Shown piece by piece: positions 3 through 56,251 of a stretch of 64,000 nt of DNA (position 1 is its first letter; each line of letters opens with the position of its first letter). The notes under the pieces were generated by a model. It searched no databases, was not told the DNA's origin, and worked only from the letters and a program-made list of their open reading frames with translations. The position numbers were made by a program, and so were the translations under genes. Source of the DNA: Fimbriiglobus sp. (GTDB lineage: Bacteria > Planctomycetota > Planctomycetia > Gemmatales > Gemmataceae); contig JANXWE010000066.1 of NCBI GenBank assembly GCA_025351325.1, forward strand, positions 807 through 64,806. The letters run 5' to 3'.

Positions 3-524
3 AGTGTCGAAACCAACGGCGAGTACACCCGGCTGAAAGATCCTTCTTACGTGAACATGCTCGCGGCCTCGGCGGCCCTCTTCGACATCGGCTTGCTCGT
101 CATCCCCGGTGGGCTTCCGTTGAAACCCGGCAAACTCGACCCCGACGAACGCCAAGTGCTACAGACGCACCCGACCGCCGGGGGAGAGATCTTGATGGGC
201 CTCGCGGAGAAGTTCCCGAGTGAAACCGGGTGCATTTCGCTCGCCGCCGAGATGTCGCGGTCGCACCACGAACGCTGGGATGGCACTGGCTACCCCGAGC
301 GATTGGGAGACTCGGACATCCCGTTGTCGGCCCGTCTGGTGTCGATTGCATCCATCTACGATAGCCTCCGTTCCCGGCGGCCGTATCGCCCGGCCGTCAC
401 CCACTCCCGCGCCGTCCGCGTGTTGACTCACGAGTGCGTCGGTCGCTTCGATCCCGCGATCTTGAATGCCTTCGTCGCCGCGGCTTCCCGCTTCGAGCAA
501 ATCTACAACGAGTACCCGATCTGA
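3..524 (+). CDS. HD-GYP domain protein (c-di-GMP phosphodiesterase family), 5' partial
   Basis: Frame 3 is open from the window edge to the stop at 522-524. The translation contains HHERWDGTGYP, the GYP signature of HD-GYP domains. Confidence 0.75.
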   Translation, partial: SVETNGEYTRLKDPSYVNMLAASAALFDIGLLVIPGGLPLKPGKLDPDERQVLQTHPTAGGEILMGLAEKFPSETGCISLAAEMSRSHHERWDGTGYPERLGDSDIPLSARLVSIASIYDSLRSRRPYRPAVTHSRAVRVLTHECVGRFDPAILNAFVAAASRFEQIYNEYPI

Positions 525-579: not shown

Positions 580-1131
580 ATGCTTCGCTTGGGACTCAGT
601 CTGTTGGTGGCGGCGTTCGGCGGGTTCGCGTTGGCCGCGGACGACAAAGGCACCGTCGTCAAACTCGCCGGATTGTCCGGTACGACTCCCGCCGATTGGA
701 AAGAAGAAACCCCGTCAAACAAAATGCGGCTGGCCCAGTTCAAACTGCCGAAGGCCGAGAAGGACAAAGACGACGCCGAGATGTCCGTGTTCATCTCGCC
801 GGGCGGCGGTGGCGTCGACGCCAATTTGAAGCGCCAAGAAGCGAAGTTCGAAATCGCCGAAGGCGTGAAGAAGGAAGACGCGGTCAAACTCGACAAGGTG
901 ACGGTCGGCACCTTCGACGGCAAGTACCAAGACCTGTCGGGGACTTTCCTGTCCAAGTCGGCCCCGTTCGATCCCAACTCGAAAGTCACCAAGAAGGAAG
1001 GCTACCGCCAGCTTTATGTGATCTTCGAAGCCAAAGATAGCGAAGTGGTTTCCATGATCGTCGTCGGCCCCGCGGCCACCATCGAAAAGCACAAGAAAGG
1101 GTTCGAGGAGTTTTTGAAGAGCTTCAAGTGA
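580..1131 (+). CDS. secreted hypothetical protein
   Basis: ATG at 580 preceded by GGAGGA. N-terminus MLRLGLSLLVAAFGGFALAADDKG looks like a signal peptide. The upstream part of the 466..1131 ORF is R/S/P-rich junk. Confidence 0.6.
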   Translation: MLRLGLSLLVAAFGGFALAADDKGTVVKLAGLSGTTPADWKEETPSNKMRLAQFKLPKAEKDKDDAEMSVFISPGGGGVDANLKRQEAKFEIAEGVKKEDAVKLDKVTVGTFDGKYQDLSGTFLSKSAPFDPNSKVTKKEGYRQLYVIFEAKDSEVVSMIVVGPAATIEKHKKGFEEFLKSFK

Positions 1132-1805
1132 AGGTTCGCTTGGGATCGGATCCTCTTCACAGCGACTCGCCAACGAAGCCATCCCGGAAGAAGCGGCGGC
1201 GCGTGCCAACACCATCGCGCGCTCGCGCCGCAGCGGAATTGACGGTTGGCCTGATCGGGTTATTTGCGGTCGTGGTGTTCGTCCCGCTTTCCAGCCCGTG
1301 GTTCGTCGTCGCCATTGCCATCGCGTGCTGTGCGGTGACGGCTTACGCGGTCTACGGTGCGACCCGGTTCGACGGCGCCGCAAAGTGGTGGGGATTCGTT
1401 TGGGGTGGTCAGCACCACGATGATTTGGCGCGCGGACTCTTCAACACCGGCTTGCTGTTCGTCGGTTCGCTCGTCCCGATCGCGATGGTCAAATGCTTCA
1501 TCCGCACGCCGATCGTCCCGCACCCGATCCCGTATTTGTTCTGGTGCTTCGCACAAGATTTTCTCTTTTTCTCCATCGTCATGCGGGGCATCGAGCGGTT
1601 GTCCGCCGGATCGGTCGCGGGCCATCGACACGTCGCCGTTTGGGTCACGGCATTTTTATTCGGGCTGTCGCACTTCCCGATGTACGGGTTCATGCTCGCC
1701 ACCGCTTCGATCGCCGTTTTTTGGGGGTATATTTTCCAGCGGAGCCGCCTGCTTTGGCCGGTGACGGGATTGCACTTCATCCTCGGACTATTGGTCATGT
1801 CCTGA
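1128..1805 (+). CDS. CPBP (CAAX/Abi-like) intramembrane protease family protein, divergent motif 1
   Basis: Multi-TM protein with FLFGLSHF and LHFILGLL motifs resembling CPBP motifs 2 and 3. The usual EExxxR motif reads QDFLFFSIVMRG. GTGA overlap with the upstream stop; start uncertain. Confidence 0.5.
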   Translation: MKVRLGSDPLHSDSPTKPSRKKRRRVPTPSRARAAAELTVGLIGLFAVVVFVPLSSPWFVVAIAIACCAVTAYAVYGATRFDGAAKWWGFVWGGQHHDDLARGLFNTGLLFVGSLVPIAMVKCFIRTPIVPHPIPYLFWCFAQDFLFFSIVMRGIERLSAGSVAGHRHVAVWVTAFLFGLSHFPMYGFMLATASIAVFWGYIFQRSRLLWPVTGLHFILGLLVMS

Positions 1806-10642: not shown

Positions 10643-11242
10643 TTAATCCTGGCTGGCCACCACTTGTTCACTGCCGGTGGATTCGGGATCGAGCAAGTTC
10701 CGCAATTCGAGCCGCGCCCGGTGCAATCGGCTCCGCACCGTGCCGATGGGCACCTTCATCAACTCCGCGATGTCATCGTATTTCAAACCGTCGATGTCCT
10801 TCATGAGCAACACCGCCCGGTGCTCGACCGAGAGTTTCAAGATCGCCGCCGCCAACATCCGCTCGTCTTCGGTTCGTTCCAGTGCGGAATCGGGGGCCAC
10901 ATCGGCCGAGCGATCTTCCGGGTCGATACCCGCCTCACCGTTTCTACCAACCCCGGCATCCAAGCTCACCACGGCTCGCTTCCGACGCTTGGCACTGATC
11001 GCCGTGTTGAAGGCGATCCGGTAGAGCCAAGTGAAGAACTCGGCGTCGCCTTTGAAGCTGGCCAGCGACTGGTACGCATTCACAAAAGCATCTTGAACGA
11101 CATCCAGGGCATCGTCGGGGTTGTCCATCACCCGGTTGGCCACGTGATAGAGCCGATCCTGATACCGCACCACCAGCTCTCCGAAGGAAGCGGTTTTGCC
11201 GGCCAGTGCTTCCGAAATCAGGCGTCGATCATCTGGATTCAC
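10643..11242 (-). CDS. ECF-type RNA polymerase sigma factor
   Basis: Region 2 (DDALDVVQDAFVNAY, FFTWLYRIAFN) and region 4 (LKYDDIAELMKVPIGTVRSRLHRAR) are present. GTG start at 11242. Confidence 0.9.
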   Translation of the reverse strand: MNPDDRRLISEALAGKTASFGELVVRYQDRLYHVANRVMDNPDDALDVVQDAFVNAYQSLASFKGDAEFFTWLYRIAFNTAISAKRRKRAVVSLDAGVGRNGEAGIDPEDRSADVAPDSALERTEDERMLAAAILKLSVEHRAVLLMKDIDGLKYDDIAELMKVPIGTVRSRLHRARLELRNLLDPESTGSEQVVASQD

Positions 11243-11463: not shown

Positions 11464-14400
11464 ATGGACAACCCGACCATTCAGGTTCGCGGCGCCCGCG
11501 AACACAATCTTCGCAACGTCAACTTAGAACTTCCCCGGAACAAATTGATCGTTTTCACCGGGGTCAGCGGTTCCGGCAAAAGTTCGCTCGCCTTCGACAC
11601 GTTGTACGCCGAGGGACAACGTCGGTACGTCGAAAGTCTCTCCAATTACGCCCGGCAGTTCCTTGGCCAACTCCCCAAACCCGACGTCGACTATATCGGC
11701 GGTTTGTCGCCGGCGATCAGCATCCAACAAAAAAGTGCGGCACGAAACCCGCGCTCGACCGTCGGCACCGTCACCGAGGTTTCGGACTATTTGCGGGTGT
11801 TGTACGCCCGCGTCGGCCTGGGGCATTGCCCGAATTGCAGCCGGCCGATTGCCGCCCAAACGCGAGAACAGATCCTGGGTCGGATTGCTGCGCTGCCAGA
11901 GGGAGCGCGGTTCAGCATTCTTGCGCCCGTGGTGCGTGGACAAAAAGGAGAGTTCAAAGATTTCTTCGCTGACATGGTGAAGCGTGGCTACGTTCGTGCC
12001 CGCGTCGATGGCGAAATTGTCCGTATGAGCGACGATCTCCGGCTCGACAAAAAGATCAAGCACTCTATCGAGATCGTCATCGACCGGCTGCAATTGAAAC
12101 CGACCGACGGCGCCCAACGCGTGCGGATGGCCGAAGCGGTGGAGCAAGCGCTCGCCCTCGCGGAAGGGAACGTCATCATTTCGGTGGAGCAAGAGATCGC
12201 GTCGGAAACACGCAAACCGAAATCCGAAATCCGATATTCCGACATCCTCTTGTCCGCCCACTACGCCTGCACGCATTGCAGCATCAGCTTCGAGCCGCCG
12301 ACCCCGCAACTCTTCAGCTTCAACAGCCCGATGGGGATGTGCCTCGTGTGCGAAGGCCTCGGCCGCGTCCACAGCTTCGCCCACGAATTGCTCATCGCCG
12401 AACCGACCAAAAGTCTGAGCGACGGTGCGATTCCCCTCGTCGGGGCCGTCAAAGGGATGGGCCGCTGGAAAAAGCACATCTACGAAGGCGTGGCCACCTC
12501 GCTCGGCCTCGACCTCAAAATGCCCTGGAACAAAATGCCGACCGAGCAGCAGCGGCTCTGGTTGCAGGGTTCCGGCGACCGGCACATCGTGTGGGAGTGG
12601 AAGCAGCGCGGCGGCAAGGTCTGGAAACATAGCGGCAAGTGGGAAGGGATCATCCCTCAGCTCATCGGCCAGTTCAAAAAAGCGACCGCCGGCCCGCGGC
12701 GGATGCAGCTCGAAAAGTACATGCGAGTGCAGAACTGCACCGCGTGCCAGGGGGAGCGGCTCAACCCGCAAGCCCGCGCCGTGCGCGTCGGGGATCAAAC
12801 CATTGTGCAAGTCGGCCACATGCCCATCGGCGATCTCGTGCCGTGGTTCGGCACCATGGAAAAAACGTTGACCGCCGTTCAGCGATTCATCGCCGGGGAA
12901 CTGCTCAAAGAGATCCGCTCCCGGCTCGGCTTCCTGCTCAACGTCGGCTTGCACTACCTCAGTCTGGATCGTTCTGCCCCGACCCTCTCGGGGGGCGAAG
13001 CCCAGCGCATCCGCCTCGCCGGGCAGATCGGTTCGGGGCTAGTCGGCGTGCTCTACATCCTCGACGAACCGAGTATCGGCTTGCACCCGCGCGACAACGA
13101 GAGACTGCTCGCCAGCCTGTTGCACCTCCGCGACATGGGCAACACGGTGCTGGTGGTGGAGCATGACGAAGAGACGATGCGGGCCGCGGATTACCTCGTT
13201 GATTTCGGCCCTGGCCCGGGCGTTCGTGGCGGCGAAATCGTCGCGGCGGGTTTACCGAGCGAGGTGCTGGCCAACCCGAACAGCCCCACGGGGCAGTACC
13301 TCACCGGTGTGAAGACGATCCCGATTCCGAAGAAGCGGCGACCGGTCTCCGACAAGGCCATCAAAATCGTCGGGGCCAAGCACAACAACTTGAAAAATGT
13401 GGACGTGAGTATCCCCCTCGGCGTATTCGTTGTCGTCACCGGTGTCAGTGGCAGCGGCAAGAGTTCGCTGATCAACGACGTGCTCAAGTGCGGATTTGGG
13501 ATTTCGGATTTCGAATTGGAAGAGGAAGACAGCGAAAGTGATGCCGAGCTGCCGACATCCAATTCCGAACTCCGCAGCCGGGTGGAACGGATCGAGGGTT
13601 TCGACGCGATCGACAAGTTGATCGACATCGACCAAGCGCCGATCGGGCGGACGCCCCGTTCGAACCCGGCGACCTACATCAAAGTCTGGGACGAGATTCG
13701 GACGCTCTACGCCAACATGAGCGATGCCAAACTGCGGGGCTACAACGCCGGGCGATTCAGTTTCAACCGCCCCGGTGGCCGCTGCGAGGCGTGCGAAGGC
13801 AACGGCTCCAACAAGTTGGAAATGGACTTCCTCGCCGACGTCTGGGTGACCTGCCCGATCTGCGAGGGGCGCCGCTTCAACCACGAAACCCTCCAGGTGA
13901 AGTACCGCGGCAAGAGCATCCACGACGTGCTCGAATTGGAAGTCGGCCAGGGGGTGACGCACTTCGAGAACGTCCCCAAAGTCCACGCGATGTTACAAAC
14001 TCTCCACGATGTGGGCCTCGATTACATCAAGCTCGGCCAGCCGTCGCCGACGCTCTCGGGGGGCGAAGCCCAGCGGGTCAAACTCGCCAAGGAACTCTGC
14101 CGCAAGGGGAGCGGCAAGACGCTGTACATCCTCGACGAACCGACCACCGGGTTGCACTTCGAGGACATCCGCAAGTTGCTCGAGGTGCTCCACGGCTTCG
14201 TCGATCAGGGCAACACCGTCCTCGTGATCGAGCACAATTTGGACGTCATCAAGACCGCCGATTGGGTCATCGACATGGGGCCGGAAGGGGGCAGCACCGG
14301 CGGGCAACTCGTGGCGTGCGGAACCCCGGAAGCGTTGACCAAAGTGGCCGCGTCGCACACGGGGCAGGCCCTGTTGCCCGTGCTGTTCCCCAAGAAAGCC

Positions 14401-17400
14401 AAGGCCAAAGCGGGGAAAGTTCGCAAGGCTACCGCGGCTCCGCTCCAAGTGGAGATGACGCACCTCGAAGTCGAGGGGGCGTCGCAGCACAACTTGAAAA
14501 ATGTGAACGCCCGCATCCCCCGCAACGAGATGACCGTCTTCTGCGGGCCGAGCGGCTCGGGCAAATCGTCGCTGGCGATGGACACCATTTACGCCGAGGG
14601 GCAGCGCCGGTACGTCGAAAGTTTGTCGAGCTACGCCCGGCAATTTCTCGGGCAGGTGCAGAAGCCACGCGTCGAAAGCATCACCGGATTATCGCCCGCC
14701 ATCGCCATCGAACAGAAGACCACGAGTAAATCGCCACGCTCCACCGTCGGCACGATTACCGAGGTCTACGACTACCTGCGCATCTTGTTCACGCGGGTGG
14801 GCCAGCGCTTTTGTCCGCACTGCCAGATCCCCATCGGCACCCAGACGAAGGACGAGATCGTCGAGAAGATCTTGGGCCTCCCGGAGGGGACCAAGCTGTA
14901 CATCCTCGCGCCGTTGGAGCGCAAGGGGCAGGAGAAATACGACACCGTCTGGGAGGAAATCCGCCGGTCGGGTTTCGTGCGGATGCGCGTCGATGGCAAG
15001 TCGTACGGCGTCGACGAGCCGCCGGAAATCGACCACAAGCGGAAGCACAAGATCGAAGTCGTCGTGGACCGCAACGTCGTCCGGCCCGGCACCCGCACCC
15101 GCATCGCGGACGCCGTGGAGCAGGCCCTGAGCCTCGGCCTGGGGGTCATGCACCTCGCCTACGTCGATCTCGACCGCGATGAAACGCTCTGGAAAGTGGA
15201 GCGGTTCTCGCAGCATCTCGCCTGCGACCAGTGCGGGCGGAGCTACGAGCAACTCACCCCGAACAACTACAGCTTCAACAGCCCGCTCGGGTGGTGCCCG
15301 ACTTGCGAAGGCTTGGGCGTCCAGCGCGGTGCCAGCGTGGCCCTGCTCATCGGCAACCCCAAGCTCAGCGTCCGCCAGGGGGCCATCGTCGCCTGGCCAC
15401 GCCCTGACGCAAGCAGCCCGTGGCTCCCGTTCGCAGCCGGTATCGCCGCCCACGTCGGCTTCGACCTCGACACGCCGTACCAAGATCTCGATCCCATCCA
15501 CCAGCGGGCGATCCTCCAAGGGACGGGCGAGGCCTGGATCACTTTGATTTCGGATTTGGGAATGAGGATTTCGGATCCGAAATCTAAGAAATCGAAGAAG
15601 CCTGCGAAAGGTGATTCCGACAATCCCAAATCCGCAATCCCGAATCCGAAATTCCAATACAAGGGTCTCTTCCCCGCCATCGACGAAGCGTCCCGCGTGA
15701 GTTACCAGTACCGGGCGCGGCTCGACCACGTCGTGGACGAGGTGCCCTGCGTCGCCTGCCACGGCGGGCGGTTGCGGGCCGATGCTACGGCCACGCGCTA
15801 CTTGAACCAGACGATCCGCGAAGTCTGCGCCCACCCCATCGGCATCATGCTCCGACAATTCGAAGCGGTGACGTTGGCGGACGCCGAGCAGAAAGTCATC
15901 GGGGAAGTGCTGCGGGAGATCATCAACCGCGTCAAGTTCCTCGTCGACGTCGGCTTGGAATATTTGTCGCTGGATCGCCCCGGCCCGACGCTGTCCGGCG
16001 GCGAAGCGCAGCGGATTCGACTGGCCTCGCAGATCGGTAGCGGCCTGACGGGTGTGCTTTACGTATTGGATGAACCAACCATCGGCCTGCACCCGCGTGA
16101 CAACGCCCGCTTGCTGAAAGCGCTGCATCATCTCCGCGATCTCGGCAACACGTTGCTGCTCGTGGAACACGACCGCGAAGTGATCGCCTCCGCCGATTAC
16201 CTGTTCGACTTCGGCCCCGGTGCCGGCCGGCATGGTGGGGAAATCACGGCCGAGGGAATCCCAAGTGCGGTGCTGAAATCGAAGGCGTCGCTCACGGGAC
16301 AGTACCTGTCCGGCAAGCTCGCGATCGCGGTACCCACGAACCGCCGCATCCATCGCATCGAGCCGAAGAAATTCATGCAGCACGCCGATGCCACCGTTGC
16401 CGAACTCCGGGCAGCATTCCAGTTCCCGCACAAGAGTTTCCTCAGCGTGCTCGGCGCCCGGCACCACAACCTGCGCAACGTCGATGTCCACCTTCCACTC
16501 GGGGCGTTCGTCGTCGTCACGGGGGTGAGTGGCTCCGGGAAAAGTTCGCTCGTCAACGAGGTGCTCTTCAACACCTTGGCGCGGCGGTTGAATCGCGCCC
16601 GCACCACCGGTGCGGCTCACGACGACATCACCGGCATCGAGAACATCGACAAAATCATTCGCGTCGATCAAGACCCGCTCGGTAATTCCCCGTCGAGCAA
16701 CCCGGCCACCTACACCGGTGTCTTCGACCTCATCCGCGAGCTGTTCAGCCGGATGCCTGAATCGAAAGTTCGTGGCTATCCGCCGCGACGCTTCAGTTTC
16801 AACCAGAAAGGCGGCCGGTGCGAAGCGTGCGAAGGCAACGGCCAAAAGAAGATCGAGATGCATTTCCTCCCCGATGTCTGGGTCGAGTGCGACACCTGCC
16901 ATGGCACACGGTACAACCCCGAAACGCTGGCCGTGCAGTACCGCGGCAAGAGCGTCAGCGACGTGTTGAATCTGCCCGTCGATGACGCGCTCGAACTGTT
17001 CGGCAACATCCCCAAGATCCGGGTGATTTTGCAAACGCTCTCCGATGTCGGCCTGGGTTACATGCAGCTCGGGCAGCCGGCACCGACCATGAGTGGCGGC
17101 GAAGCGCAGCGGGTCAAACTCGCCGCGGAACTCGCCCGGCCCAGCACCGGCAAGACGCTCTATCTGCTCGACGAGCCGACGACCGGGCTGCACTTCGACG
17201 ACGTTAAGAAGCTGTTGAACGTGCTCCACCGGTTGACCGATCTGGGCAACACGGTGATCGTGGTCGAGCACAATTTGGACGTCATCAAGACGGCCGATTG
17301 GATCGTCGATATGGGGCCGGAAGCCGGGAGTGGCGGTGGCGAAGTGGTTACGTGTGGCACTCCGGAAGCCGTCGTTCAATTCGCGGATGCCCACCCCGAG

Positions 17401-18492
17401 TTGCCGCTGTACACGAGCCGCGCTTTGAAGCCGGCGCTGGTAGCCGGGCCGTTCGCCGAACGCGAGCGATACGATGCCAAGAAGGCGCTCGCCAAGAAGC
17501 TCGGCGACCTCTCTCTCGACGACGTCGGCAAGGATCAGAAGTTGCCCTGGGAAGCGAACGGGATCCAGTGGCACACGCGGGATCGCATCACCACCAAAGG
17601 CTCACCCTGCAAATGGGACGGGGCCGCGTTGCTCGAGGTCATCACGGGAATTGAGCAACTCGGCAACTTCAGCGATACCGTCTGGGAGCATCGCAGCATC
17701 GTGGAAATCCCAGCCGCGAAGAAATCGCTCGGCTGGTTCTTGCACGCCATGACCGGGCACGAGGCGTACTTGAAACTCGTCTTCCGAGTCGCCCGCAACA
17801 CCTTCAAGCAGGCCACCCTGGTGGAGAAGTTAGCCCTGCGACCGCTCAGCGATTATCCCGGCCACGAGGGGTACGCCCGCGATCACCGCGTGGAAGTCTC
17901 GAACCCGCGTGGCCCGTGGCAAGAAGTCGTTGTGACCATCGTGAAAGTGGCCGAGGTTCAAGTGCCATCGTTTCGAGAATTTTTGAAACAGGCGGCCGAT
18001 TCGTTCCTCGCGGCGACTGCCAAGACCGACGGAGCCTCGGCGGTGGATGCAGCGATGCCTTGGAAAATCAACGGCGAGCAATGGCACGTTGGCGACAAAG
18101 GCTTTCCGCCCGGCAAGAAGCCGAAATGGGATCGGGCGTTGCTACCGAAGCTCCTCCAACTTCTGCACGATGTGGAGCCAACGGCCGAACTGAAGCACGA
18201 CGTCCGCGATGCCATCACCGTGCGGCTGCCGGACATCAGCCGCTTCTGGGTGAGGATCAAGACGAAAGAAGTGGCGTCACTCGAAGTCTGGCTCGTCGCC
18301 AAACCGGGTGCCTTCAACGCTGCCCGGTTCGAAGGCGTCGGTGCGTTGGCCACGGTGGAAGCCGACCGGCAAGAAGGCTGCGCGGTCGTGAAATTGCATT
18401 TCGTGCTGGCGGAACAGCTCGCCTCCAAAAAACTCCTGCCGCTGTTGCGTGAACTGCGACAGGGATTCATCGGCTTGTTCGGCGAACCGTAA
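11464..18492 (+). CDS. uvrA: giant tandem UvrA-UvrA fusion protein with unassigned C-terminal extension containing a duplicated domain (2342 aa)
   Basis: Four Walker A sites (three GVSGSGKSS, one GPSGSGKSS) and four LSGGEAQR signatures. The zinc modules and UvrB-binding-type inserts are present in each half. I chose the ATG at 11464 ([16 protein letters not shown]) because the 11206 start overlaps the divergent sigma gene and adds junk sequence. Confidence 0.85.
12179..12240. repeat. degenerate heptamer-palindrome element inside uvrA module 1 (weak copy)
   Basis: TTCGGTGGAG at about 12180 resembles the inner end of the left arm of the 29056 element. Three AwTCCGn-type units (AAATCCG AAATCCG ATATTCC) sit at 12220..12240. 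It encodes [19 protein letters not shown]. Confidence 0.35.
13490..13576. repeat. heptamer-palindrome element inserted in frame in uvrA module 1
   Basis: Left arm is GCGGATT TGGGATT TCGGATT TCGAATT (13490..13517). Right arm TCCAATTCCGAACTCCGCA (13558..13576) is its imperfect reverse complement. Span is 87 nt (29 codons), encoding [29 protein letters not shown]. Confidence 0.7.
14455..17400 (+). other. UvrA module 2 (second complete UvrA, diverged from module 1)
   Basis: [17 protein letters not shown]... with CPHCQIP, CDQC...CPTCEG and CEACEGNG...CDTCHG zinc modules and two ABC sites. The DNA differs from module 1 at many synonymous positions. Confidence 0.8.
15550..15655. repeat. heptamer-palindrome element inserted in frame in uvrA module 2
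   Basis: Left arm is TCGGATT TGGGAAT GAGGATT TCGGATC CGAAATC (15550..15584). Right arm is ATTCCGA CAATCCC AAATCCG CAATCCC GAATCCG AAATTCC (15614..15655). It encodes [35 protein letters not shown]. Confidence 0.7.
17541..18489 (+). other. C-terminal tandem duplication of an unassigned domain (about 170 + 145 aa)
   Basis: Repeat 1 begins [14 protein letters not shown]...[11 protein letters not shown]. Repeat 2 begins [14 protein letters not shown]...[11 protein letters not shown]. Both continue into alternating hydrophobic strand-like segments. Confidence 0.6.
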
Positions 18493-25268: not shown

Positions 25269-25304
25269 GAAAAGCAACAACCCCGGCCGAGCCGGGGTTG
25301 TTGC
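25269..25304 (-). terminator. Rho-independent terminator downstream of the DUF1573 gene
   Basis: 14-bp GC-rich stem (GCAACAACCCCGGC / GCCGGGGTTGTTGC) with a 3-nt loop. On the minus strand it is followed by UUUU (plus-strand AAAA at 25270..25273). Confidence 0.7.
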
Positions 25305-25325
25305 TTCGTATGTTCCGGACGACCG

Positions 25326-29043: not shown

Positions 29044-29055
29044 CCCTTAAACGAT

Positions 29056-29150
29056 GCGGAATGCGGAATGCGGAGTTCGGAGTGCGGAATACGGAGAGCG
29101 GTGGAGACCCTTCTTCCACTCCGCACTCCGAATTCCACACTCCGCATTTC
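29056..29150. repeat. heptamer-array palindrome between response-regulator and kinase genes
   Basis: Seven tandem units at 29056..29104: GCGGAAT GCGGAAT GCGGAGT TCGGAGT GCGGAAT ACGGAGA GCGGTGG. After an 11-nt spacer, five complementary units at 29116..29150: CCACTCC GCACTCC GAATTCC ACACTCC GCATTTC. Confidence 0.85.
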
Positions 29151-56170: not shown

Positions 56171-56251
56171 CCAATGCGAGCCGGTCCCCGTGAGGGGACG
56201 GGTGATCTGGTTCGCTTCACCCGTCCCCTCACGGGGATCGGCTCGCATTGG
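56171..56251 (+). repeat. 81-nt hairpin (35-bp stem, 11-nt loop) 14 nt after the dnaK stop; likely terminator and/or REP-like element
   Basis: 56171..56205 pairs with 56217..56251 as 34 Watson-Crick pairs plus one G-U. Each arm contains its own mini-palindrome (GTCCCC-GTGA-GGGGAC at 56184..56199). It is followed by GTCTATTTTA. Confidence 0.8.

Follow-up and report, generated by a model that had tools for sequence, protein, structure and literature searches.

Palindromic repeats that are translated as part of uvrA have been known since 2013, when repetitive extragenic palindromes (REPs) were reported in frame inside uvrA and other repair genes, as singles or as inverted dimers (Di Nocera, De Gregorio & Rocco 2013, BMC Genomics 14:522, PMC3733652). 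In Opitutus terrae, REP inserts occupy residues 638–644 and 1601–1623 of a 1995-aa double UvrA (Oter_2709) and residues 224–239 and 440–462 of a 999-aa UvrA (Oter_3168), and the uvrA gene of Thioalkalivibrio also carries REPs (PMC3733652). The authors considered it unlikely that the association of REPs with repair genes is fortuitous and left the over-representation as a puzzle. A stretch of 64,000 nt from Fimbriiglobus sp. (Gemmataceae; GenBank assembly GCA_025351325.1, contig JANXWE010000066.1, positions 807 to 64,806 of the forward strand), referred to here as the window, extends this pattern by a repeat of a different make. An initial annotation of the window, based on its letters and open reading frames (ORFs), had described a palindromic heptamer-repeat element at nt 13490–13576, in frame within a fused double uvrA gene, and had interpreted it as a REP-like element absorbed as a surface-loop insertion, with Rickettsia palindromic elements as the precedent. 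A REP-like element read in frame is right in kind, whereas the history proposed for it, a recent and clean insertion, is not borne out. With moderate confidence, nt 13489–13576 (site 2) can be regarded as a decaying copy of a hairpin-forming repeat, which translation reads as an acidic, probably disordered loop of low conservation. Beyond the known pattern, the locus adds a heptamer-built repeat type for which no description was found, the repeated occupation of the same four loops of planctomycete double UvrA proteins by unrelated hairpin families at orthologous positions, and base-pair covariation at one of these loops, whereby the question of why repair genes are affected becomes testable.

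Opitutus terrae belongs to the same Planctomycetes–Verrucomicrobia–Chlamydiae superphylum as the window organism. Its insert residues lie near sites 1, 2, and 4 of the window gene (Table 1) and near a rarer position at about residue 437, a match by number only between unaligned proteins, and the REP dimer of Oter_2709 has a K-rich spacer, as is the case at site 3. The REPs found in uvrA fall into GTAG- or CGTC-tagged superfamilies, in which each unit is a small hairpin, and are abundant and mostly extragenic; positional conservation among orthologues and covariation are not described for them (PMC3733652). In the window, by contrast, the tandem heptamers are not self-complementary and pair solely between arms, and extragenic copies are scarce in the DNA examined. 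Neither GTAG/CTAC nor CGTC/GACG tags are found at the ends of 13489–13576, 15546–15657, or 29052–29148. Rickettsia palindromic elements measure about 100–150 bp, have consensus sequences of their own, and are spread over many different genes. Like the window element, they are palindromic and lie in frame in functional genes, at positions thought to be surface-exposed (cited in PMC3733652). They are, however, Rickettsia-specific, lack heptamer periodicity, and show no sequence relationship to the window element, which is concentrated in one gene; a Gemmataceae host, the heptamers, and the absence of an Rfam match set the latter apart, no consensus of the Rickettsia elements having been compared. 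As a precedent they therefore serve by analogy and not as relatives, the direct precedent being the REPs of uvrA (PMC3733652). REPINs (Bertels & Rainey 2011, PMC3116915) share with the window element inverted arms around a spacer that form a long hairpin, and likewise constitute a non-autonomous family within a genome, but their arms are REP hairpins, their extragenic copies run into the hundreds, and they are linked to a RAYT transposase. With arms of 28–31 nt, a total length of 87–112 nt, and no coding capacity of their own, the window palindromes have the size and the terminal inverted repeats of MITEs, transposable elements of the miniature inverted-repeat kind. Among heptanucleotide repeats, the short tandemly repeated repetitive (STRR) sequences of cyanobacteria are comparable tandem arrays. 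TAACTGA repeats, which show a patchy spread across Beggiatoaceae, Cyanobacteria, and Bacteroidetes (MacGregor 2015, PMC4679880), resemble the window arrays in comprising 2–6 or more tandem 7-nt units with a preferred sequence and no known mobilizing mechanism. The window arrays share the head-to-tail arrangement of 7-nt units with both types, as a period-specific excess over other lags shows. However, STRR and TAACTGA repeats have a different unit sequence, are direct repeats located mostly upstream of start codons, and have not been reported in frame in uvrA, whereas the window contains inverted pairs and three of its four places lie inside a gene. Searched at gathering thresholds, Rfam gave no match anywhere in the window, and neither Rfam nor the literature searched yielded a description of CGGA-heptamer palindromes, including their translations GCGGAATGCGGAAT, AECGMRN, and SAFRIPH.

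Table 1. Positions of the double uvrA gene, its four variable loops, and the heptamer arrays in the window (TRF, Tandem Repeats Finder)
Feature	Window position (nt)	Residues	Strand	Remarks
Double uvrA	11464..18492		+	From ORF list and translation; 2342 aa from ATG 11464
Site 1	~12187–12249	~242–262		Module 1
Site 1, remnant	12207..12247		+	Module 1; one-armed TCCG-type array (CCGAAAT CCGAAAT CCGATAT TCCGAC); TRF and lag scan
Site 2	13489–13576	~675–705		After Walker-A helix, second ATPase domain, module 1
Site 2, left arm	13489..13517		+	Four tandem heptamers (GTGCGGA TTTGGGA TTTCGGA TTTCGAA register); encodes CGFGISDFE
Site 2, spacer	13518..13557		+	40 nt; encodes acidic stretch
Site 2, right-arm remnant	13558..13576		+	TCCAAT TCCGAAC TCCGCA; encodes SNSELR
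Site 3	15546..15657	~1362–1400	+	Insertion domain, module 2; intact in-frame heptamer palindrome
Site 3, left arm	15546–15576		+	
Site 3, spacer	15577–15622		+	K-rich
Site 3, right arm	15623–15657		+	
Site 4		~1625–1660		Linker between the two ATPase domains, module 2; no palindrome in window
Extragenic heptamer palindrome	29052..29148		.	~6–7 plus ~4–5 units (ATGCGGA, GTGCGGA, GTTCGGA)

The left arm of site 2 begins two codons past the Walker-A helix motif, and the catalytic motifs around the segment are intact. The four heptamers, initially read as GCGGATT TGGGATT TCGGATT TCGAATT at 13490–13517, are real and non-random. TRF reports nt 13491–13517 with a period of 7, 3.9 copies, and 85% matches; a scan for self-identity at lag 7 picked out three places only in the 64 kb (12207, 13489, and 29052), as against a single hit, at lag 6, for all remaining lags within 4–12; and four-unit CGGA arrays with a 7-nt period, counted when 14 or more of the 16 bases fit, number five, as against 0.17 per shuffled window. 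A chance origin of the left array was rejected on the basis of the lag-7 scan, the array counts in shuffled windows, and a pair test that none of 200 shuffles passed. The 87-nt span, the 40-nt spacer, and the 29-residue peptide proved to be as originally described, apart from the codon register, which is 13489–13575 and thus one base off. The facing inverted arm is present, albeit as a weak remnant. Within the right arm TCCAATTCCGAACTCCGCA (13558–13576) only two TCCG units are in register, and the arms pair over 16 nt with 81% complementarity. In the pair test, which looks for an array accompanied by an inverted array, the site 2 element fails, while the elements at 15551 and 29057 pass. A 95-nt RNA covering site 2 folds into the expected hairpin at −27.1 kcal/mol (z −0.9), yet 36 of 200 shuffles fold equally well; owing to the erosion of the right arm, the stability of the hairpin no longer exceeds chance. 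It is only because orthologues bear intact, two-armed versions at the same codon that reading site 2 as a palindrome is credible.

The weak right arm and the non-significant fold would also suit an origin of the periodicity by replication slippage, in place, in a low-complexity coding loop, with a coincidental partial inverted arm and no repeat family at all. Among the simple repeats of bacteria, those of seven nucleotides form a common class (PMC4679880), and a recurrent Gly-hydrophobic-Arg motif, noticed when the alignment was inspected by eye, could seed GGA-NTN-CGG. A single 7-nt slip, however, would break the reading frame. Moreover, clear two-armed CGGA palindromes are found at the same codon in four orthologous loci (L002, L208, L209, and L211) as well as at 15546–15657 and 29052–29148 of the window, and the combination of an array and an inverted array does not occur in any of the 200 shuffles. 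Slippage is therefore extremely improbable as an explanation and, judging from the orthologous two-armed copies, appears to be largely refuted already.

The decayed copy at site 2 has better preserved relatives nearby. Period-7 repeats are reported by TRF at 12217, 13491, 15546, 15616, 29054, and 29117. At site 3, an intact palindrome takes the place of the insertion-domain β-hairpin of solved UvrA, directly before FQYKG, and its RNA is predicted to fold at −43.3 kcal/mol (z −5.2). At site 1, a one-armed remnant is located within a 14-residue insertion relative to solved UvrA, seen as a gap in the alignment with the Protein Data Bank structure; no significant fold was obtained for nt 12207–12247 (z −0.56). 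Peptides of the right-arm type (PRSELxAPRS) are seen at the site 1 loop of many orthologues. These two elements and the recurrent occupancy of four loops had been missed by the initial annotation, whose account was in this respect incomplete. The intergenic palindrome to which it had linked site 2 is real and strong: nt 29052–29148 have arms of 29–31 nt with 87–90% complementarity and fold at −62.1 kcal/mol (z −9.5 on both strands), in a 113-nt gap between a response-regulator gene (29738–29160, −) and a histidine-kinase gene (29043–27517, −), both identified by Pfam. Membership in the same unit family holds as far as the CGGA core and the period are concerned, but the sub-types differ, with TTTCGGA in uvrA versus ATGCGGA, GTGCGGA, and GTTCGGA in the intergenic copy. 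The initial interpretation is supported in that the segment is read in frame and is a member of a family of hairpin-forming repeats with copies outside genes as well. The abundance of this family around the gene, in contrast, is not visible: the 57 kb of the window outside uvrA hold one extragenic CGGA copy only, and in the window together with nine scanned orthologue loci some 23 CGGA arrays are located in uvrA versus 3 elsewhere. The spacers are purine-rich at site 2 (13518–13557, 72%) and at site 3 (15577–15622, 63%), with GAA/GAG-type codons yielding an acidic loop at the former and AAG/AAA codons a basic loop at the latter; spacer DNA of one kind could be translated in more than one frame, or charge may be selected separately in each loop. 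Outside uvrA, three strong hairpins are found in the window, all of them intergenic. Besides the heptamer palindrome these are 56171–56251 and 25272–25306, with arms of 35 and 16 nt and short loops, which are situated past or between ORF ends, appear terminator-like, and are unrelated in sequence to the heptamer family.

CGGA-heptamer palindromes are not confined to Gemmataceae. When one genome per species was scanned for CGGAR-NN in four units, at least 120 loci in many phyla were returned; among the 120 matches listed, 22 form hairpins from an array and an inverted array, mostly with arms of four to six units, and the most frequent unit is ATGCGGA. Intergenic copies of such palindromes were seen in Acidobacteriota, Verrucomicrobiota, Gemmatimonadota, Planctomycetota, and others (exemplified by L008, L029, L033, L067, L069, L076, and L100). 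Two of the 120 matches listed fall at uvrA, where a random stretch of 8 kb would, by a rough estimate, be expected to receive a few tenths of one. In L026 (3455–7012, −), a metagenome-assembled genome of Planctomyces, a double uvrA carries in-frame arrays at site 3 (PSTEYRVPSGKAKKNSDDPRNSELGTRNFSFQYKG) and just past module 2; in L073 (Gemmatimonas), an array at 2893–2917 lies about 10 nt past the uvrA stop.

A MAFFT alignment of 118 full-length orthologues reveals four hypervariable loops in an otherwise highly conserved double UvrA. The insertions of the window protein relative to solved UvrA coincide exactly with these loops, including a 26-residue insertion at site 4, where the window lacks a palindrome. 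An AlphaFold2 model of module 1, computed with 13 orthologue rows, was unfit for mapping (mean predicted local distance difference test 36, predicted template modelling score 0.26), and the mapping of the loops consequently rests on sequence alignment to solved UvrA. By this alignment the site 2 segment lies where the window protein has about 15 extra residues, whereas its counterpart in module 2 is, as had been proposed, an ordinary UvrA segment that aligns without gaps. The site 2 loop is expanded, acidic, and of similar length in 118 of 118 orthologues, including heptamer-free ones such as KEALSAAVANGGRAGPDTDDLEEDDLPHSVGSHDR; the canonical flanks are where the heptamer arms lie, and the hairpin spacer supplies the acidic run. 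Site 3 spacers are mostly lysine-rich among the orthologues. Many orthologues display peptide "palindromes" of several families at these loops, some of the CGGA-heptamer type (FGMRNSERG...SELRxPNSEFR, SAERGTRNAE...SALRAPR, RISD...IRNPK) and others of different types (ASGGRKPPE...GGLRPPLA, SRDAESSERSAKR...ALRSADSTSRL, and further ones). For annotation, this accounts for odd low-complexity peptides (such as FGMRNAERG...SELRNPNSEFR) in UvrA and in spurious ORFs, and it serves as a warning that such loops evolve at the DNA level and not at the protein level. Since all orthologues possess the expanded acidic loop, the element at 13489–13576 did not create the insert, contrary to what had been supposed. 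The initial annotation had itself named orthologues with the peptide insert but without the repeats as evidence against its account, and the alignment provides this evidence in part, in that heptamer-free orthologues retain the expanded acidic loop.

The DNA of the orthologues, comprising eleven loci with called genes and a further metagenome set, confirmed that the loops contain inverted repeats. An array of four CGGA units begins at one and the same codon of site 2, in a common register, in the window, L002, L208, L209, L210, and L211. The right arm is recognizable in L002, L208, L209, and L211 and eroded in the window, L210, and L001; in the closest relative (85% identity) inspection by eye detects only a degenerate period-7 trace of it. 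Over seven genomes, 69% of cells pair at site 2, and covariation is marginal (6/500 shuffles). The same codon and register in other genomes indicate that the array is old, in disagreement with the idea that it was absorbed recently in this genome.

These data also bear on a mobile REP- or MITE-like element, distributed genome-wide, that would have inserted whole and recently into an ordinary UvrA segment and become a new surface loop. Such an event would fit with the relative in an intergenic gap 15 kb away, the similar intergenic palindromes of mostly four to six units per arm in many phyla, units that are open in all frames, and the completely different loops of the closest relative. It is nevertheless very unlikely, given that all 118 orthologues share the loop expansion with its acidic centre, that codon and register recur in other lineages, that the copy is eroded and not fresh, and that one extragenic copy in 57 kb is all that was found. 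Neither a clean empty site nor a target duplication was found, the orthologue loops being too variable to define an empty site.

A different picture emerges at site 3, where position, register, and an arrangement of four plus four units are shared by the window, L001, L002, L124, and L207. The CGGA and TCCG cores are invariant in these five genomes, while the remaining positions vary by genome; 88.7% of cells pair, and 8 pairs and 13 cells have changed on both sides. None of 500 shuffles matches the pairing, the number of changed cells, or the covariation score, and only 1 of 500 matches the pair count, whereas slid controls reach at most 2. A comparison of L124 (14027–14124) with L207 (4123–4222), whose UvrA proteins are 91% identical, revealed an A-to-G change in nearly every left unit and the matching T-to-C change in the right units, that is, a concerted compensatory change of the whole array. 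The compensatory changes at site 3 imply that the arms were held complementary over time. As far as these sequence comparisons go, selection, replacement by palindromic family members, or hairpin-templated correction may each have maintained them. Between genomes the arms encode radically different peptides in an unchanged DNA register, so that the constraint does not appear to act on the peptide; selection at the protein level on the arm peptides was judged unlikely for this reason.

The hairpins are unevenly distributed. Over 26 loci (two being duplicate contigs), 24 strong hairpins lie inside uvrA, where they cluster at window residues 209–245, 675, 1360–1364, and 1628–1635, with one more at 437. 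Calling coding sequence by stop-free frames is uninformative in GC-rich DNA, in which spurious long frames occur everywhere, and densities were therefore compared in six gene-called loci with about 107 kb of flanks outside uvrA. Of the strong hairpins in these loci, 10 fall within the 42 kb of uvrA and 6 within the intergenic DNA of about 11 kb, while the other coding sequence, about 96 kb, has none. Within the data assembled, the excess in uvrA is real, and tolerance alone does not explain why its loops are more densely occupied than other coding DNA. Site 4 of other genomes carries unrelated palindromes (L123 15034–15134, L126 14978–15097, L141 9081–9137, L144 9086–9148, and L162 7744–7884). 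Near-identical dispersed copies of some uvrA palindromes exist in the same genome, as for site 4 of L144 and L144 19209–19274, from which it follows that at least the REP-like families are genome-wide repeats.

Conservation and density together raise the possibility that the uvrA hairpins are selected cis-acting structures in the coding sequence, formed by mRNA or by single-stranded or cruciform DNA. Such structures might delay ribosomes or RNA polymerase at fixed positions along the 7-kb frame, shield the long mRNA from exonucleases, or serve as a damage-responsive attenuator. Any stable hairpin would suffice in this case, which would account for the different palindrome families at the same loops, and the copy at 13489–13576 would be one that is being lost. 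This possibility draws on the site 3 hairpin, kept in register with compensatory changes in five genomes, on the clustering, at the same four loops, of hairpins from five or more families without sequence relationship, and on a density in the uvrA loops about 6–12 times that of intergenic DNA with none in the other coding sequence. The two uvrA matches of the scan, which was unbiased (L026, in frame at site 3, and L073), point the same way, and Di Nocera et al. (2013, PMC3733652) likewise thought it unlikely that the link to repair genes is fortuitous. On the other hand, many orthologues, among them an entire basal clade, Limnoglobus roseus (P0071), and Fimbriiglobus ruber (P0010), have short loops and no hairpin at one or all sites; the site 2 copies have decayed in the window, L001, and L210; and covariation is equally expected if palindromic family members replace one another. 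Selection for these structures is consequently considered rather unlikely, although it is the alternative to which we attach most weight.

It seems preferable, with the moderate confidence stated above, to regard the site 2 segment as a decaying repeat copy translated as a loop, and the following course of events may be envisaged. The repeat would consist of four tandem NNNCGGA units, a purine-rich spacer, and four TCCGNNN units. A palindrome of this kind presumably entered, or arose in, the site 2 loop long before the present species, and would have been tolerated because heptamers with a CGGA core lack stops in all six frames and because the loop can take up nearly any sequence. In agreement with the first of these properties, 58 of 64 NNNCGGA units, as tandem arrays, are stop-free in six frames as compared with 50% of all heptamers, and the intergenic palindrome at 29052–29148 has a stop codon in none of its six frames. 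Periodic renewal by processes at the DNA level could have kept the arms complementary, the candidates being replacement by another family member, gene conversion, and hairpin-templated correction. The copy at 13489–13576 would now be a relic, serving as loop-coding sequence only.

Several observations do not sit easily with this scheme. Hairpins are commoner in the uvrA loops than in intergenic DNA, which is unexpected for a neutral passenger. CGGA cores kept in register at about 70% UvrA identity, together with the compensatory changes at site 3, could reflect structural selection instead. There is no clear signal of homogenization between sites, the unit similarity between sites within a genome being 0.13–0.56 versus a mean of 0.16 for the same site between genomes. 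No direct repeat is visible at the borders of the element, and the loops are too variable for an empty site to be defined. Finally, the Gly-hydrophobic-Arg motif recurs at the left-arm position in many orthologues (alignment by eye), and part of the conservation of the left arm may accordingly lie at the protein level. On a broader proposition, the palindromes of the UvrA loops would be more than passengers, either because hairpin formation is selected or because uvrA is a preferred target when hairpin repeats are mobilized under DNA-damage stress. We regard this proposition, too, as rather unlikely. If true, it would explain the convergence of unrelated families on uvrA loops in Planctomycetota and Verrucomicrobiota, and perhaps in Gammaproteobacteria, whose uvrA REP positions were not compared, and it would answer the question posed in 2013 as to why REPs reside in repair genes. 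Were the hairpin itself selected, the coding sequence of the damage sensor of excision repair would conceal a cis-acting structure that covariation conserves and for which any stable hairpin could substitute.

The host gene is a typical representative of its kind. The fusion of two uvrA genes in Planctomycetes has been published, and the fused protein was detected in the proteome of Tuwongella immobilis (PMC8567305). The window ORF of about 7 kb, the longest version of which has a GTG start at 11206, upstream of the ATG at 11464, likewise joins two complete tandem UvrA modules in one reading frame and continues into a C-terminal extension of about 400 aa. Each of the two modules can be aligned along its full length with solved UvrA (9gxk and 2r6f), and four Walker A motifs were counted. 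The best 120 database relatives are 65–85% identical, 118 of them being full-length with 2276–2425 aa, and the named ones are UvrA proteins of Gemmataceae (Fimbriiglobus, Gemmata, Limnoglobus, and Urbifossiella). No Pfam family matches the C-terminal extension (window 17290–18489, about 400 residues), and metagenomic relatives conserve it down to about 35% identity. In the nine gene-called loci in which the upstream flank is covered (L001, L002, L123–L126, and L208–L210), the upstream side of the double uvrA carries, in divergent orientation, an ECF-type (extracytoplasmic function) sigma-70 gene followed by a conserved gene of unknown function. In the window, a 199-aa ORF at 10643–11242 (−) occupies the place that matches these upstream genes of the orthologue loci.

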